DNA of 64,000 nt from Eubacteriales bacterium (GCA_045587665.1 JAZNCT010000065.1:95-64094), one strand, 5' to 3'; positions 24,465 through 54,355 are shown, counted from the stretch's first letter. Notes: a model not told the origin generated them from the sequence alone. Numbers and translations: made by a program.

Positions 24465-26042
24465 TCAGTGAAAAGTGAAAAATAAAAATCTCCCCGAGCT
24501 TTGTTCGGGGAGATTTTTTGGCTGGGCGGATGTGATGAAATCCGAACCATCTTGATTCGAAATATCTGATTCTGCGACGGAAAGTGCTTCAAGATCTTTT
24601 TGCACTTCTTCGTAGGTCACCTGTTTTTCTTTATTTATGTTATAGTAGATGACGAGCTTATCATCGTAAACATAAACGGCATTTATGAATGTATCTATCA
24701 TCTGCTGGCGGTAACTTTCATCTGTTACGTTGCCTGTAATGATGGCTTTTAACCAATTTCGATAATCTTCTTTTGTGAATGCATTTTTACTTGTTATCCG
24801 CAAATTTGCTAAGTCGATCTTCATCTCATCGATTTCGAAACTTAATTTCTCTATCTTCTCATTAAGCTTCTTAACCAAAAGCGAATTTTCGGCGTTTGCT
24901 ATCATAAGATCAACGGATGCATTTACCTCGCGTTCGGCTTTTTCGAGAGCTTTTTCCAGTTTCCCGATATTATCTGCCGAAAAATCCTTCTTGTATTGTT
25001 CATCTAACTTTTCCGCGATAAAATCTATTTTCTGAGGAGTAAGTATGTAATTGATGGTTTGCTCAACAACATATCTTTCAAGAACGTCCTTCTTTTCGTT
25101 TTTCTTTTTGCAGGTATGGTGTTTCTTTCGGGTGGCGCAAGTATAATAACGGTGAACGGTTCCGTCTCTTCCCTTGCCGCTCTCGCCTATCATATTAGAA
25201 CCGCACATTCCGCAGAACAGCTTTCCTTGCAACTGATATTTAATTTTGGCTTTCGAAGCAGCGGGTGCTCTTTTATTTGCTGCGATCTTTTCATTTACGA
25301 GCTTGAAAGTTTCATCATCAATTATTCTCGGATATATCTGCGGAATAATCTCATCCTGGAAGTTATACACTCCGATATATTTTTTGTTTCTCAAAATACT
25401 GTGTAGGCTTCCTATATGGAATTTCGATTTTAATCTAGGCTTAACGCCTCGGTCATTAAGATGCTTGACGATGTATGAGAGTCTCGTTCCTTTGGCATAT
25501 TCGTTAAAAATATACTTGACGATTTCTGCTTCGGCTTCATTTATTACGATCTTTTTATCCTTGACCTCGTACCCGTATGAGATAATTCCGCCGGTGAATG
25601 TTCCTCGGCTTCTTGCTACTTTCAGACCTCTTTTCACGTTCTGTGAGAGATTTGCCGAATAATATTCTGCCATACCTTCAAGCATGCTTTCGAGGATAAT
25701 TCCCATCGGATCTTCAGAGATGTTCTCCATGACAGAAACAACCTTGACATCGTTCTTTTTCAATTTTGATTTATATAAAGCACTGTCATAGCGATTTCTT
25801 GAAAATCTGTCCAGTTTATAAACAAGTACAACATCAAACTGTTTTTTCTCGGAGTCCTTGACCATCTGCTGGAACTGAGGACGGTGTTCTGCGTTTGTTC
25901 CCGTGCAGGCTCGGTCTATATAATTACCGATAACAGTGATATTATTTTGTTCTGCATATCTCATGCAGTCTTCTATCTGCCCTTCAATACTGCGTTCTGT
26001 CTGATTATAGCTTGAGTACCGCGCGTATATTACAGCGTTCAT
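24465..26042 (-). CDS. large serine recombinase (phage integrase)
   Basis: N-terminal resolvase domain MNAVIYARYSS...RSIEGQ with the catalytic Ser region, a recombinase domain, a Cys-rich zinc ribbon (CGMCG...YYTC) and a coiled coil. ATG 26042 follows GAAAGGAG. Confidence 0.9.
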   Translation of the reverse strand: MNAVIYARYSSYNQTERSIEGQIEDCMRYAEQNNITVIGNYIDRACTGTNAEHRPQFQQMVKDSEKKQFDVVLVYKLDRFSRNRYDSALYKSKLKKNDVKVVSVMENISEDPMGIILESMLEGMAEYYSANLSQNVKRGLKVARSRGTFTGGIISYGYEVKDKKIVINEAEAEIVKYIFNEYAKGTRLSYIVKHLNDRGVKPRLKSKFHIGSLHSILRNKKYIGVYNFQDEIIPQIYPRIIDDETFKLVNEKIAANKRAPAASKAKIKYQLQGKLFCGMCGSNMIGESGKGRDGTVHRYYTCATRKKHHTCKKKNEKKDVLERYVVEQTINYILTPQKIDFIAEKLDEQYKKDFSADNIGKLEKALEKAEREVNASVDLMIANAENSLLVKKLNEKIEKLSFEIDEMKIDLANLRITSKNAFTKEDYRNWLKAIITGNVTDESYRQQMIDTFINAVYVYDDKLVIYYNINKEKQVTYEEVQKDLEALSVAESDISNQDGSDFITSAQPKNLPEQSSGRFLFFTFH

Positions 26043-26120: not shown

Positions 26121-26149
26121 TTGACAAAAATCGGCAGATATGATATACT
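26121..26149 (+). promoter_or_regulatory. promoter of toxin-like mRNA A
   Basis: TTGACA, 17 nt, TATACT, with TG upstream of the -10. Confidence 0.6.
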
Positions 26150-26266
26150 TATCGGCGGAGATCCGAAAGGAGATCCCGGAGAACACCATAAACGGTGGCG
26201 GTTGCTTCCCTTAATCGGGAATGCAGATTTCTTTTGTTTGCCTTCCCGAGAGGGGAGGTGATGCTG

Positions 26267-26356
26267 ATGTTTGTTACATGGGAACTGCTGTTCCTTTTTG
26301 CGGGTTTTATTCTCGCTCTGCTAACCTACATAGATAATCATAACAAAAAGAAATAA
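26267..26356 (+). CDS. 29-aa hydrophobic peptide, candidate type I toxin (holin-like toxin-type)
   Basis: Product is MFVTWELLFLFAGFILALLTYIDNHNKKK. SD GGGGAGG sits 8 nt upstream (ATG 26261 is an alternative start). One TM helix plus a basic tail. A paralog lies at 28280. Confidence 0.6.
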   Translation: MFVTWELLFLFAGFILALLTYIDNHNKKK

Positions 26357-26424
26357 CCGCCTCACTCCCACATAAGGCGGTTATTTCTATAATCGACAGG
26401 GGGCAACCGACATCGGTGCTCTCC
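26340..26424 (-). ncRNA. candidate antisense RNA A (antitoxin) convergent with the peptide gene
   Basis: Minus-strand consensus promoter TTGACA (26459-54), 17 nt, TATAAT (26436-31). Hairpin 26351-86 followed by ctttttgtt on the minus strand gives an RNA of about 85 nt overlapping the ORF 3' end. RNA ends are predicted, not measured. Confidence 0.5.
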
Positions 26425-26479
26425 GTTATTATTATATACCGCTTTATGCTTTTTGTCAATAGTTTTATTTGATTTATGA

Positions 26480-26516
26480 CCATTTTGTTGATGTCAACAA
26501 AATGGCTTTATTTTTT
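26480..26516 (+). terminator. strong plus-strand intrinsic terminator
   Basis: Stem ccattttgttga/tcaacaaaatgg followed by ctttatttttt. It would end a roughly 360-nt toxin mRNA that covers the whole antisense gene. Confidence 0.7.
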
Positions 26517-27875: not shown

Positions 27876-27989
27876 ATGGAAAATCAGAATTTACGTGAAG
27901 AACTGAAGTCCATCATTGAAGATGCCGATTTCAGTGAAAATGAACTGAAGATTTTAGTTGAAAAAGCAAAAGAAATTATGAATACATAA
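27876..27989 (+). CDS. 37-aa micro-ORF resembling the C-terminal helix of the neighbouring XRE proteins
   Basis: GAAGGAGG RBS 7 nt upstream. Product is MENQNLREELKSIIEDADFSENELKILVEKAKEIMNT. ELKILV aligns with ELKVLV of the XRE at 28931. Below the ORF-track size cutoff. Confidence 0.5.
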   Translation: MENQNLREELKSIIEDADFSENELKILVEKAKEIMNT

Positions 27990-27993
27990 TTTT

Positions 27994-28095
27994 TGGTTTT
28001 TGCTTTCAATTAAAAACTTCGCAAAAGACTTGAGCTGTTCGAGCTGTTTATCGTTCACCCGATAGATGTGTTTGAACAGCTCTCCTTTTTCTGCA
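27994..28095 (-). pseudogene. 3' remnant of a fourth XRE paralog
   Basis: Minus frame reads GELFKHIYRVNDKQLEQLKSFAKFLIESKNQK, homologous to the XRE C-termini. The HTH part is replaced by toxin module B and the stop codon is lost. Confidence 0.5.
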
Positions 28096-28101
28096 AAGTT
28101 C

Positions 28102-28130
28102 TTGACAAAAATTGTCAGTTGTGATATACT
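28102..28130 (+). promoter_or_regulatory. promoter of toxin-like mRNA B
   Basis: TTGACA, 17 nt, TATACT, homologous to 26121-26149. Confidence 0.55.
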
Positions 28131-28279
28131 TTTCTCGGATACCCGAGAGGGAATCCCGGAGAACACCATTACGGTGGCGGTTGCTTCCTTTCTTTAATTA
28201 CGAAAGGAACATCTTTGCTCCTTTCGATTAACATTGAAAGGAGTGGTGCTTATGATTTTCATTATGCACCTTGTTGAGC

Positions 28280-28357
28280 ATGGTTACATACGAAGCCTTA
28301 TTTGCTTTTGCTATGGTACTTATTGCGCTTGCGGCTTTATTTATCGACCGCAAATGA
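28280..28357 (+). CDS. 25-aa hydrophobic peptide, paralog of the 26267 peptide (possibly decaying)
   Basis: MVTYEALFAFAMVLIALAALFIDRK aligns with VTWELLFLFAGFILALLTYID. Relative to copy A, extra sequence of about 28 nt separates the SD (28236-43) from the homologous reading frame, and the SD-proximal ATG 28252 is out of frame with it. Confidence 0.45.
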   Translation: MVTYEALFAFAMVLIALAALFIDRK

Positions 28358-28359
28358 TA

Positions 28360-28446
28360 ACAAAAAAAGATAACCGCCTGACTTCCCAATCTAAACGGTT
28401 ATCTTTTAACTATTAGTACTGGGAGCAACCGTCATCGGTGCTCTCC
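28360..28446 (-). ncRNA. candidate antisense RNA B
   Basis: Minus-strand TTGACA (28481-76), 17 nt, TATAAT (28458-53). Hairpin 28367-28406 followed by tttttgtt on the minus strand. Confidence 0.45.
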
Positions 28447-28486
28447 GTTATTATTATATACCGCTTTTTATGTTTTGTCAATAGTT

Positions 28487-28903
28487 TTATTTGTTTTTGC
28501 TCTCATCTAAATATTTTATAAAAACTTTGAGCTGTTCGAGCTGTTCATCGGTCATTTGATCGATGCAAACGAACAGCTCTTTTTTATTATTGTCTATAGG
28601 CGATGCCGGGGCGGCTTCTTCTTTACCCAAAAGGAAATCAATCGATACGCCGAAATAGTCGGCTATATGATTTAACATTGATTTTATGTGCTCAAATAGC
28701 TCTTTCTCGTTGCCTTCTATTGGTGATGCTGGGGGATTTTCCTCTTTTTCTAAAAGATATTCTACCGATACATCAAAATAGTCAGCAATTTTCCTTAAAG
28801 TTGTTTGCCTTGGTACTGTATTATTATCCCAACACGAGAATGCTGCACCCGAAAGCCCAATAGCTTTGCATACTGCCGTAGGTGCTACATTTTTTTCGAA
28901 CAT
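28487..28903 (-). CDS. XRE-family HTH protein with internally duplicated linker module
   Basis: HTH region CKAIGLSGAAFSCWDNNTVPRQTTLRKIADYF. The segment IADYFxVSxxxLLxKEExxPASPIxxNxKELF occurs twice. C-terminal helix DQMTDEQLEQLKVFIKYL. Confidence 0.8.
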   Translation of the reverse strand: MFEKNVAPTAVCKAIGLSGAAFSCWDNNTVPRQTTLRKIADYFDVSVEYLLEKEENPPASPIEGNEKELFEHIKSMLNHIADYFGVSIDFLLGKEEAAPASPIDNNKKELFVCIDQMTDEQLEQLKVFIKYLDESKNK

Positions 28904-28930: not shown

Positions 28931-29254
28931 TTACTTATCGTTTTTATTATCGATTAAATATTTCACCAAAACTTTGAGTTCTTGAATTTGTTCATCGGTC
29001 ATCTGATCGATGTGATCGAACAGTTCTTTTTTATTTTCATCAGCAGGTGAGGATGGGGCGGCTTTTTCTTTTTCTAAAAGATGTTCTACCGATACCTCAA
29101 AATAGTCAGCAATCTTCTGTAAATTTTTAGTGTTTGGCATAGCACCGTTTTTCCACTTTGTAATCGAGCCATGAGCAATGCCAATTTCTTTGACCACTTG
29201 CAACGGCTTCATTCTTTTTTCAGTGCAAAGATTATAAAAGTTATTCCAAAACAT
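28931..29254 (-). CDS. XRE-family HTH protein
   Basis: HTH region VVKEIGIAHGSITKWKNGAMPNTKNLQKIADYF plus the same C-terminal module. ATG 29254 lies 1 nt after the upstream stop (the track start at 29272 is TTG). Confidence 0.8.
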   Translation of the reverse strand: MFWNNFYNLCTEKRMKPLQVVKEIGIAHGSITKWKNGAMPNTKNLQKIADYFEVSVEHLLEKEKAAPSSPADENKKELFDHIDQMTDEQIQELKVLVKYLIDNKNDK

Positions 29255-29255
29255 T

Positions 29256-29579
29256 CTATTTTCTGCTATCAATTAAAAACTTCGCATAAGACTTGAGCTG
29301 TTCTAGTTGGTCAGCGGTCATTCGGTCGATGTGATCAAATAATTCTTTTTTGTTGTCATCTAAAGGTGATGCTGGGACGGTTTCTTCTTTTCCTAAAAGA
29401 TAATCTACCGATACTCCAAAATAGTCGGCTATTTGTGGAAGATATTTAGTGTAAGAGTTACTTTTGCCGCTTTTCCAATCGCTGAAAGCTTGTTTACCAA
29501 CTCCTAGATGTTCACATAAATCTTTTTGTTTTTTTGATTGAATAGATAATTCTTTTATAATATTGTTCAAAATATGCAA
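29256..29579 (-). CDS. XRE-family HTH protein, probable prophage repressor (CI-like)
   Basis: HTH region LCEHLGVGKQAFSDWKSGKSNSYTKYLPQIADYF. The track start 29732 lies inside its own promoter. TTG 29579 after AGGTAAG is the first plausible start, but it remains uncertain. Confidence 0.65.
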   Translation of the reverse strand: MHILNNIIKELSIQSKKQKDLCEHLGVGKQAFSDWKSGKSNSYTKYLPQIADYFGVSVDYLLGKEETVPASPLDDNKKELFDHIDRMTADQLEQLKSYAKFLIDSRK

Positions 29580-29637
29580 AAATCTTACCTGCCTTTCGTT
29601 TATATTCAACGAAATTCGAAAAAATCTTATTTTTGTC

Positions 29638-29666
29638 TTGACAGTAAGATATTTTCGTACTATAAT
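29638..29666 (+). promoter_or_regulatory. rightward early (lytic) promoter
   Basis: Consensus TTGACA, 17 nt, TATAAT. Confidence 0.65.
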
Positions 29667-29687
29667 GTTATTGCAAACAAAAAAATG

Positions 29688-29732
29688 TTTTACTGTTGCT
29701 TTTATTATACAGTAAAAAGATGTTTTTGTCAA
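29688..29732 (-). promoter_or_regulatory. leftward repressor promoter with 9-bp inverted repeat over the -10
   Basis: Minus strand reads TTGACA (29732-27), 17 nt, TATAAT (29709-04). Inverted repeat TTTTACTGT (29688-96) / ACAGTAAAA (29709-17). Confidence 0.6.
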
Positions 29733-52933: not shown

Positions 52934-54355
52934 ATGCTTAATCATGGAATAAATACCTACAAAAGCGGAACTAACTTTTCAGCCGTAAAGACTGCGGCTG
53001 TGGGTATTCCGCTTTTTATAGGCGCATGGCCCTGCCACATGGCAGGCGGCTATGTGGACGCTCCCGTCCTTGCCACGAGCTTTGATGAGGCGAAGGAAAA
53101 GGGCGGCTACAGCTATGAATGGAGAAATGCCGATTTTTCGCCTAAGTGGAATCTCTGCCAGGCGATGTATTCTCATTTCAAGCTCTTTGGAATGTCCCCT
53201 GCGATATTTGTCAATGTTTTTGACCCTTCAAAGCACACAAAGGATCTCGCTGAGACTTCCGTAAAGGTCGAAAATCACGTTGCAAAGCTCTCGGCGGACG
53301 TTATTGCCGACGGTCTCATTATCAAATCGGGTGATCAGTCACTCAAGGAAGGAACAGACTATGAGCTCATCTATGACGATGGCTGTCTTATCGAGCTTCT
53401 GAAGAACGGGGCAGGCTATGATGCGGTAAGTCTTACCGTTTCGGGCAAGACTGCCGATACTTCGATGATAAAGGCTGCCGATATCGAGGAAGCTGTGGAG
53501 AAGGCTGACCTTTGCAAGACCGTTCTCGGAATCGTTCCCGATCTTATCTGTGCTCCCGGATGGTCGAAGAATCCCAGCGTTGCCGCTGTTATGACGGCAA
53601 AAGCTGCCGCTATCGGCGGCCTGTTCTCCGGAAAGGCTGTATGTGATATCGATAGCTCTGCTGCAGGTGCTCCTACATATGATAAGGTTCTAAAGTGGAA
53701 GAACGACAACGGCTATACAGACGAGAACATGATCGACGCTTGGGGCATTGCCAAGGTGGGCGATTATCTCTTTGATATGTCCCTCATCATCTGTGGAAAG
53801 ATCGCATCGGTTGATTTCGGCAACGCAGGCTGCCCATATGAATCCCCCTCAAATAAAACACTGGCTATCTCAGGACTTGTAAACGAAGCCGGAGATGAGG
53901 TGAATTTGACGCCTGCACAGGCGGATGTCGTATCTGTCAATGCAGGCGTAGTTACAGCCTTTAACTTTGGCAGCTGGGTGCTTTGGGGTAACCACACAGC
54001 GTGCTACCCGGCAAGTGCCGATGTTGCAGAATATTTCATTTGCACAAGCCGTATGCATGATTGGATAAACAACACTTTCACAAACACCTTCTGGAGTGAG
54101 ATCGACAAGCCTATGACGAGAGTCCGCATAGATTCCATAATCAATAGCTTCAACTCTTGGCTCTCGGGCCTTGTTCATGAGGGCAAGCTATATGGAGGAC
54201 AGGTGGAATATATCGCAGACAACAATCCTGCCGCATCTCTTGTGGGCGGCAAAATTCGTCTCGACACCGCATTTGCGTCTCCCGTTCCTATGCAGCAGAT
54301 CAATATGCACTCCGAATTTGATGTAGATACTCTCGTAAACGCACTTAACGGATAA
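52934..54355 (+). CDS. contractile tail sheath protein
   Basis: 473 aa, followed by the tube, chaperone and tape-measure genes. Confidence 0.8.
   Translation: MLNHGINTYKSGTNFSAVKTAAVGIPLFIGAWPCHMAGGYVDAPVLATSFDEAKEKGGYSYEWRNADFSPKWNLCQAMYSHFKLFGMSPAIFVNVFDPSKHTKDLAETSVKVENHVAKLSADVIADGLIIKSGDQSLKEGTDYELIYDDGCLIELLKNGAGYDAVSLTVSGKTADTSMIKAADIEEAVEKADLCKTVLGIVPDLICAPGWSKNPSVAAVMTAKAAAIGGLFSGKAVCDIDSSAAGAPTYDKVLKWKNDNGYTDENMIDAWGIAKVGDYLFDMSLIICGKIASVDFGNAGCPYESPSNKTLAISGLVNEAGDEVNLTPAQADVVSVNAGVVTAFNFGSWVLWGNHTACYPASADVAEYFICTSRMHDWINNTFTNTFWSEIDKPMTRVRIDSIINSFNSWLSGLVHEGKLYGGQVEYIADNNPAASLVGGKIRLDTAFASPVPMQQINMHSEFDVDTLVNALNG

Follow-up and report, generated by a model that had tools for sequence, protein, structure and literature searches.

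Covariation supports a long 5'-3' helix, resembling helix P1 of bsrG, in the mRNA of a predicted TxpA/BsrG-family toxin

Introduction

The toxin mRNAs bsrG and txpA of Bacillus subtilis are the closest described relatives of the system analysed here, a predicted type I toxin-antitoxin module that is present in two copies (A, 26121-26460; B, 28102-28482) in a 64,000-nucleotide stretch of an Eubacteriales bacterium genome (GCA_045587665.1, JAZNCT010000065.1:95-64094). We call this whole stretch the window and count positions from its first letter. In the bsrG mRNA, nucleotides (nt) 1-35 pair with nt 232-262 and form helix P1 (Jahn and Brantl, 2013; PMC3834814). The antitoxin SR4 is complementary to the 3' half of P1; its binding opens P1 so that nt 1-33 become single-stranded, and in the SR4-bsrG complex the helix at the Shine-Dalgarno (SD) sequence grows from 4 to 8 base pairs (bp) and toxin expression is lowered (PMC3834814). 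The bsrG/SR4 duplex is degraded by RNase III (PMC3834814). The txpA mRNA alone is cut by RNase III at nt 96-98 and 218-220, on either side of a long-range helix, and these cuts are lost upon binding of the antitoxin RatA (PMC3531473). The TxpA family has been equated with proteins annotated as 'holin-like toxins' (Fozo et al., 2010).

Their sequences mark A and B as a type I toxin-antitoxin module with a peptide of the TxpA/BsrG family. The copy A peptide matches the Pfam family Hol_Tox (PF16935) with 29.4 bits at a cut-off of 23.3 and has no other Pfam match; on the same model BsrG scores 34.5 bits (the BsrG peptide used being 100% identical to the one encoded by phage SPbeta) and TxpA 31.3 bits. 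The copy B peptide, at 19.8 bits on Hol_Tox, stays under the cut-off. The original prediction for this locus had noted, in both copies, a conserved box in the leader of the toxin mRNA that is complementary to a second box beyond the open reading frame (ORF), and had proposed that the pairing locks the full-length mRNA as the fbi element does in hok. Comparison of homologues shows that a helix between the boxes exists and is under selection in the plus-strand RNA. We consider it fairly probable that the boxes are the strands of an approximately 28-bp helix closing the read-through toxin mRNA, the counterpart of helix P1 of B. subtilis bsrG, in a bsrG-type switch.

Results

The two boxes can form a near-continuous 28-bp helix

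Both boxes lie where the original prediction had placed them, and every one of its sequence statements was verified: the 5' core is identical between the copies (26175-26209 in A, 28155-28188 in B), GGAGAACACC pairs with GGTGCTCTCC at 9 of 10 positions and CGGTTGC pairs with GCAACCG at 7 of 7. The copies likewise agree at every position of the 3' box and the antisense -10 region, and have diverged in the intervening sequence. The pairing is longer than had been described, a near-continuous helix of about 28 bp that consists of 11 bp, a bulge of 5-6 nt on the 5' side and another 16-17 bp. All strands discussed here lie on the plus strand. In copy A, helix 1 joins 26177-26187 to 26415-26425 over 11 bp (CGGAGAACACC:GGUGCUCUCCG). 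It is followed, on the 5' side only, by the 6-nt bulge AUAAAC (26188-26193), whose length varies between 4 and 7 nt in homologues. Helix 2 then joins 26194-26210 to 26399-26414 (GGGGGCAACCGACAUC) as GGUGGCGGUUGCUUCCC:GGG(A)AGCAACCG(U/A)CAUC over 16-17 bp, with two G.U pairs in GGUGG:UCAUC; by these G.U pairs it continues through GGTGG:(A/T)CATC into CTTCC(C):GGGGG. The 5' strand of helix 2, which is supported by folds, covariation and RNAalifold, ends in GCUUCCC, an anti-SD sequence. In copy B the corresponding 5' strand (28157-28189) comprises helix 1 at 28157-28167, the bulge at 28168-28172 and helix 2 at 28173-28189, and the 3' strand (28421-28447) comprises helix 2 at 28421-28436 and helix 1 at 28437-28447.

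Duplex energies are -38.9 kcal/mol for copy A and -44.6 kcal/mol for copy B, compared with -19 +/- 3.5 kcal/mol for 1000 shuffles (z of -5.5 and -7.2), and the combined motif occurs four times in the window with zero occurrences expected. A scan of the 64 kb found an unrelated site at 53601 that scores equal to copy A's own 3' box, so duplex energy alone is not decisive. This second site (53596-53640, plus strand) is GC-rich and coding-like in appearance, pairs with the copy A 5' box at -40.5 kcal/mol and was taken as chance. In partition-function folding of transcripts ending just past the 3' box, the helix formed in 31 of 31 loci, with about 24.5 of its 28 bp. Because energy alone is weak evidence, it is the comparison of homologues, and not the energies in the window, that decides whether the helix is real.

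Compensatory changes preserve the helix in homologues

Homologues were sought with a 53-amino-acid (aa) extended ORF and its alignment as the query. The search gave 49 protein clusters and the genome scan that followed gave 80 loci, about 48 of which carry the whole module at 71-94% nucleotide identity, with homology spanning the 5' box to the antisense -10. The whole-module loci all come from metagenome-assembled genomes (MAGs) of Clostridia, Oscillospiraceae or Ruminococcus from ruminant guts; L079, a locus from the roe deer colon (Clostridia MAG RGIG4237), shares 94% identity with copy A along 416 nt, so that the window probably stems from a close relative.

Covariation was assessed in a plain MAFFT alignment of 42 distinct constructs, each made of a 5' segment and a 3' segment, against the 28-pair structure (1175 cells). 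In the true register 93.5% of the cells are paired, compared with only 38-56% when the register is slid. Changes on both sides are found in 15 of the 28 pairs, bearing out the covariation that the original prediction had asked about, and amount to 68 compensatory cells; none of 500 shuffles reached this. Helix 1 has both-side changes at 10 of its 11 pairs. The two boxes of one locus also bind each other more strongly than boxes from mismatched loci (-45.3 vs -40.2 kcal/mol, permutation p<1e-4). Matched changes can be followed in single loci, as GUAAGAGUUACC / GGUAACUCUUAC in L102, GUAGGAGUACC / GGUGCUCCUAC in L111, GGAGAGCGCC / GGCGCUCUCC in L107 and, in L108, GGAAAGC / GCUUUC together with UAUAUCCCC / GGGGAAGUA in helix 2; in L111 and L102 an extra base pair is compensated on both strands. 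RNAalifold, which the original prediction had suggested as a check, predicted the long helix unaided from 28 full-length homologues. Local hairpins within the boxes (CACC/GGUG and ACCG/CGGU) were considered as the selected structure and rejected because they show zero compensatory changes.

Among the 46 loci in which both segments are present, the 5' box is missing only in L105 (1327-1683), where the leader has been replaced by unrelated AT-rich sequence and a slightly altered 3' box and the antisense promoter are retained. L117 has kept its 5' box, upstream of an insertion in the leader. Several loci have a second partial or complete module beside the first (L120, 1063-1360; L111, 2035-2169; L089 and L092, 234-336), and tandem copies like A and B are therefore common.

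The pairing is assigned to the plus-strand RNA

G.U pairs fill 130 cells of the 42 homologues and A.C mismatches 26. Two positions are nearly always G.U (30/42 and 38/42 sequences), and the alternative at these positions is G-C, not a mismatch. The excess of G.U over A.C places the pairing in plus-strand RNA rather than in a DNA inverted repeat or a leader common to both RNAs, two candidates that were rejected on this asymmetry. It follows that a sense transcript must cross the hairpin at 26349-26388 and enter the 3' box. This hairpin has perfect arms of 14 bp and U-rich tails on both strands (after the GC core, 6.7 T on the plus and 7.3 T on the minus strand per 10 nt, 43 loci); it is the predicted antisense terminator and possibly a partial sense terminator. 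Given its resemblance to a two-way terminator, only a read-through mRNA would carry the 3' box. Beyond the box of copy A we confirmed the plus-strand terminator of the original prediction at 26480-26505; this intrinsic terminator (26480-26516) could end a long sense isoform.

One could suppose instead that the two boxes never occur in one RNA, that the sense mRNA ends at about 26386-26392, and that the boxes resemble each other as a shared 5' leader or as a DNA inverted repeat serving as a protein site or in recombination. The terminator-like, U-rich plus-strand tail of the hairpin and the scarcity of clear downstream terminators, which most loci lack, would agree with this, as would the fact that the sense and antisense RNAs would both start with GGAGA(A/G)CACC...CGGUUGC. 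However, G.U pairs that outnumber A.C five to one, two of them at positions that are G.U in 30/42 and 38/42 sequences, are unexpected for a DNA repeat or a shared leader; exchanges between G.U and G-C preserve pairing, and the bulge is unequal in length between the strands. We regard such a separation of the boxes as highly improbable.

Modelling suggests that the 3' box opens the ribosome site

The original prediction had further held that the antisense RNA begins at the 3' box and competes with the helix for it. Both statements are supported. The minus-strand promoter of copy A (TTGACA-17-TATAAT, 26459-26431) has 12 of 12 matches and, with its -10 ending at 26431, would start the antisense RNA at about 26424-26427, the outer end of the box; the RNA must therefore compete for the box. 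The predicted antitoxin is an RNA of about 85 nt (26341-26425, minus strand, both ends putative). It would begin with 27-28 nt complementary to the 3' box and extend over the spacer and the terminator hairpin into the ORF, of which it would cover the last ~16 nt.

When transcripts were folded without the 3' box, the GCUUCCC end of the 5' strand and its flanks paired across GAGGGGAGGUGAUGC, that is, across the SD and the first AUG. The RNAalifold consensus contains this contact as UUCCC:GGGGA (columns 64-68 with 132-136), and both the anti-SD end of the 5' strand and the SD are almost invariant in homologues. As a measure of accessibility, the energy for opening AUG-16..AUG+2 replaced the mean unpaired probability of the SD, which was noisy as the pattern located the SD imprecisely. 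For a transcript that ends at the hairpin and so lacks the 3' box, the modelled cost of opening was 17.1 kcal/mol; with a free box it fell to 10.2 kcal/mol, and 39 of 40 loci showed such a reduction (Wilcoxon p=4e-12). Antisense-like blocking of the box gave the same modelled SD accessibility as its removal. In these models the 3' box behaves as an anti-anti-SD element and not as a lock. Since its removal or blocking tightens closure of the ribosome site, the polarity would be opposite to that of hok. Of the hok-like lock that had been proposed, the 5'-3' pairing in the sense RNA and the competition by the antisense RNA thus stand, and the hok/fbi polarity, with a helix that locks translation, is not supported.

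In the bsrG-type switch that we favour, the 5' strand would choose between two partners, the 3' box and, through its GCUUCCC end, the SD/start region. With the 5'-3' helix intact, the SD would be covered by short local pairing only. The antitoxin of about 85 nt, a perfect complement of the 3' box that starts at the outer end of the box, would displace the 5' strand, and the released strand would zip over the ribosome site for a tighter translational shut-off. The long sense-antisense duplex would be a likely substrate of RNase III. We infer the direction of the switch from thermodynamic modelling together with the bsrG/SR4 experiments, and likewise only infer the transcript ends, the RNase III cleavage and the toxicity of the predicted toxin.

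A lock of the hok/fbi or aapA1 type would use the helix in the other sense, keeping the full-length mRNA inert and stable until slow 3' trimming activates it, with the antisense RNA competing for the box. It shares with the switch a real long-range helix. It would also fit a full-length model in which the ribosome site is still closed (10 kcal/mol to open, with UUCCC:GGGGA kept), and a helix that ties the ends together would shield the mRNA from exonucleases, as in hok and aapA1 (PMC8167048). Against it, the models for 39 of 40 loci show tighter closure of the site, the opposite of activation, once the box is removed or blocked, and the experimentally studied relative bsrG acts in the other direction. 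The antisense RNA complements the 3' strand and not the 5' leader as Sok and IsoA1 do, and the only consensus antisense promoter of the module faces the 3' end. The toxin, moreover, is neither a Hok nor an AapA peptide. We think a lock of this type unlikely.

Alternatively, the helix might be mainly an element of stability or processing, shielding the mRNA ends or offering an RNase III site that sets the half-life, with no direct role in translation. It is long enough for RNase III, free txpA mRNA is cut by this enzyme on either side of its long-range helix (PMC3531473), and in Lachnospiraceae relatives the other strand of the helix bears the motif GGCGGUUGCU, suggesting that the duplex and not the sequence of a strand is kept. 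What this leaves aside is the near-invariance of the anti-SD end and the SD, which would pair with each other in any transcript lacking the 3' box. We give little credence to stability or processing as the main role, although it is compatible with a bsrG-type switch and both could hold.

Two further ideas concern the switch itself. Tentatively, and with odds that we would put on the low side, read-through of the two-way terminator at 26349-26388 may gate toxicity: the short isoform would be self-clamped and inert, and in the long isoform the 3' box would lift the anti-SD strand off the ribosome site while giving the antitoxin a 28-nt landing site. If so, the amount of translatable toxin mRNA would be set by the frequency of read-through and not by promoter strength. 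In addition, being complementary to the 3' box, the antitoxin carries an anti-SD sequence of its own (..GGUUGCUUCCC) and might block the SD in trans. In S. aureus, SprA1AS blocks the SD directly in trans.

Several observations weigh against a bsrG-type switch in a read-through mRNA. The minimum-free-energy fold of 26156-26516, another check suggested in the original prediction, did not form the helix, the boxes folding locally instead, and no locus has a weaker helix than copy A (-38.9 kcal/mol, with 19.6 of 28 bp formed in the ensemble). Because the plus-strand tail of the hairpin is U-rich, part of sense transcription, and perhaps a large part, probably stops there, before the 3' box. A plus-strand terminator lies at most 200 nt past the 3' box in 18 of 44 loci vs 63 of 300 background windows, which is only about a twofold enrichment; in some loci a terminator-like site overlaps the antisense -35. 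In the models the ribosome site is mostly paired in both states, and in the RNAalifold consensus UUCCC:GGGGA persists, stacked on the long helix. Any effect on translation could therefore be small, and a lower opening cost upon adding a competitor strand is partly expected on thermodynamic grounds. Finally, the window RNA has no match to the Rfam models of BsrG (RF01412), SR4 and RatA (RF01776), also at permissive thresholds, its best Rfam score being 18.5 bits for BsrG at a threshold of 55.

Other parts of the module

The toxin promoter of copy A (TTGACA-17-TATACT with a TG extension, 26121-26149, plus strand) has 11 of 12 matches and would start the mRNA at about 26156. In about 45 homologous loci the sense -35 and extended -10 are kept and the spacer varies; the antisense promoter hexamers are likewise conserved with a variable spacer. 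The mRNA is predicted to begin with a stem-loop (26157-26176, plus strand) that appears in predicted folds and in RNAalifold (columns 15-18 with 29-32). Its sequence differs in nearly all homologues with the pairing preserved (5 compensatory sequences per pair, RNAalifold), and in the modelled RNA it is probably a protector or stabiliser of the 5' end. The 5' strand of the long helix and the SD are separated by a leader hairpin (26211-26253, plus strand; UCGGGAA...UUCCCGA enclosing a GCAGAU/GUUUGC stem) that hardly varies among homologues. The ribosome site (26254-26269, plus strand) consists of the SD GGAGG at 26254-26258 and, judged by spacing, a likely start ATG at 26267-26269. The toxin ORF that follows, which gave the Hol_Tox match (26267-26356, plus strand), encodes 29 aa (MFVTWELLFLFAGFILALLTYIDNHNKKK); many homologues are annotated as 29-aa proteins with the N-terminus MFVTWE.

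Copy B has a sense promoter at 28102-28130 (plus strand), a hairpin at 28365-28407 (both strands) as the predicted antisense terminator, and an antisense promoter at 28453-28481 (minus strand, TTGACA-17-TATAAT) that also has 12 of 12 matches. The minus-strand promoters of the two copies (26459-26431 and 28481-28453) and the minus-strand terminator at 26388-26349 define the predicted antisense RNA at the level of sequence. A 22-nt insertion in copy B separates the SD from the toxin start (region 28234-28416): the SD-proximal ATG at 28253 starts a 54-aa ORF that is out of frame with the toxin, and no separate SD precedes the toxin frame (ATG 28281, MVTYEALFAFAMVLIALAALFIDRK). The two promoters and the two boxes are nevertheless intact, and the helix is stronger than that of copy A. 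Copy B may be a decaying toxin that retains its RNA parts, or may have a coupled leader ORF.

Genomic setting and database searches

Next to the module lie genes for a large serine recombinase, several Cro/C1-type regulators and a SWIM-finger protein, which suggest that, like txpA and bsrG, it resides in a mobile element or prophage. The recombinase (Resolvase, Recombinase and zinc ribbon domains, 24465-26042, minus strand) is divergent from the toxin A promoter. The Cro/C1-type helix-turn-helix paralogues (ORFs 27954-28169, 28487-28903, 28931-29272 and 29256-29732, all minus strand) share the C-terminal motif ..(D/T)(E/D)QLEQLK.., encoded by GAGCTGTTCGAGCTGTT (28040-28090, 28530-28590), and copy B sits between a full Cro/C1-type gene and a 71-aa C-terminal fragment of another.

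A blastn search of the module against GenBank phages gave no match. Scanning viral contigs for GGAGARCACC-N(4-14)-CGGTTGC returned 78 single-site loci; since none of them resembled the module by blastn, they were set aside as chance hits. The Rfam model rli28 (RF01492) has no match in the window module at the Rfam gathering threshold. Both RatA and rli28 do match the Lactobacillus Hol_Tox loci L138, L139 and L156. The rli28 model, described as a 'Listeria sRNA', covers the leader and ORF of Hol_Tox genes in Lactobacillus/Weissella (L138, 1396-1580, plus strand; L139; L156), and in the same three loci the RatA match lies on the opposite strand just downstream. The rli28 RNA may thus be a toxin mRNA instead of a non-coding small RNA.

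Discussion

The covariation described here is clean comparative proof that a 5'-3' helix in TxpA/BsrG-family toxin mRNAs is under selection; in the literature searched, earlier support for the family helix came mainly from in vitro probing of one B. subtilis RNA. Complementarity between the 5' and 3' untranslated regions also occurs, with different and unrelated sequences, in the Hol_Tox subfamilies of Lachnospiraceae (L126-L134), Paenibacillus (L136-L137) and Lactobacillus (L138 onward). In the Lactobacillus relatives a sense terminator lies directly after the 3' strand. The helices of these distant subfamilies rest on inspection and on z-scores from mononucleotide shuffles, as RNAduplex gave over-extended duplexes on long inputs. 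Because the layout recurs with different sequences in these three groups, we suggest a family-wide design in which the helix passes on to the ribosome site what the antitoxin does at the 3' end. In gut metagenomes, where such tiny modules usually go unannotated, the helix together with two facing promoters also offers a compact signature by which to annotate them.

The motif shared with Lachnospiraceae has changed places: GGCGGUUGCU forms part of the 5' strand of the helix in the clade of the window (26194-26206) and of the 3' strand in L126-L134, and its complement AGCAA(C/U)CG is swapped likewise. The sequences give the impression of an evolutionary inversion, either of the segment between the boxes or of the helix itself.

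Of the described systems, hok/Sok (fbi-tac) and aapA1/IsoA1 share with the module a 5'-3' end pairing kept by compensatory change and a highly structured full-length RNA. In hok and aapA1, however, the helix holds the SD closed until trimming of the 3' end activates the mRNA, and the antisense RNA binds the 5' region of the processed RNA, whereas in the module the antisense RNA lies on the 3' strand, loss of that strand is predicted to close the SD further, and the toxins are unrelated. The par system of pAD1 (fst RNA I/RNA II) resembles the module in its convergent RNAs, a shared bidirectional terminator and conserved short boxes near both promoters. The par boxes are direct repeats, and RNA I and RNA II pair at their 5' ends. 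The boxes of the module are, unlike these, inverted repeats on one strand, so that the 5' end of the antisense RNA resembles the 5' box of the mRNA and is not its complement.

The txpA/RatA system of the B. subtilis skin element (Silvaggi et al., 2005; Durand et al., 2012, PMC3531473) is closer, with the same toxin family, a convergent antisense RNA over the mRNA 3' end, a long-range helix (SL4) that RNase III cuts and RatA binding abolishes, and a site in a mobile element beside recombinase and phage genes. It differs in that RatA is 222 nt long with an overlap of ~120 nt, that SL4 is formed by strands near nt 96 and 218 and not by the extreme 5' leader, and that RatA is reported to act through decay only; the module antisense has no Rfam RatA match, whereas the Lactobacillus Hol_Tox loci do.

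With bsrG/SR4 the module has most of its architecture in common. The bsrG locus in SPbeta has, in this order, the 5' strand, a CCCC-loop-GGGG SD hairpin, an ORF ending in KKK, a hairpin and the 3' strand. In both systems the mRNA of a Hol_Tox toxin pairs its 5' region with a 3' region past the ORF, the antitoxin is complementary to a region that includes the 3' strand of the helix (here 26399-26425), the SD sits in a short C-rich/G-rich hairpin, and a hairpin right after the KKK-stop terminates the convergent antisense RNA. For the module, modelling predicts the outcome that experiment has established for bsrG: antitoxin binding would open the helix and tighten the pairing of the SD. The RNAs have no detectable sequence homology. 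In bsrG the mRNA terminator follows directly after P1, whereas the next plus-strand terminator of copy A lies 55 nt on, past the antisense promoter, and the sense terminator of the module, where one is found, lies beyond or over that promoter. SR4 is 180 nt long and starts further downstream; the module antisense RNA is predicted at ~85 nt, from a promoter that abuts the 3' strand. Also unlike bsrG, the hairpin ahead of the 3' strand looks bidirectional, and the helix is one nearly continuous 28-bp duplex, whereas P1 consists of five sub-helices. The module introduces no new principle: it is best read as being of the known bsrG-P1 type, with an abutting antisense promoter, a bidirectional-looking hairpin and a near-continuous 28-bp duplex as its variants.

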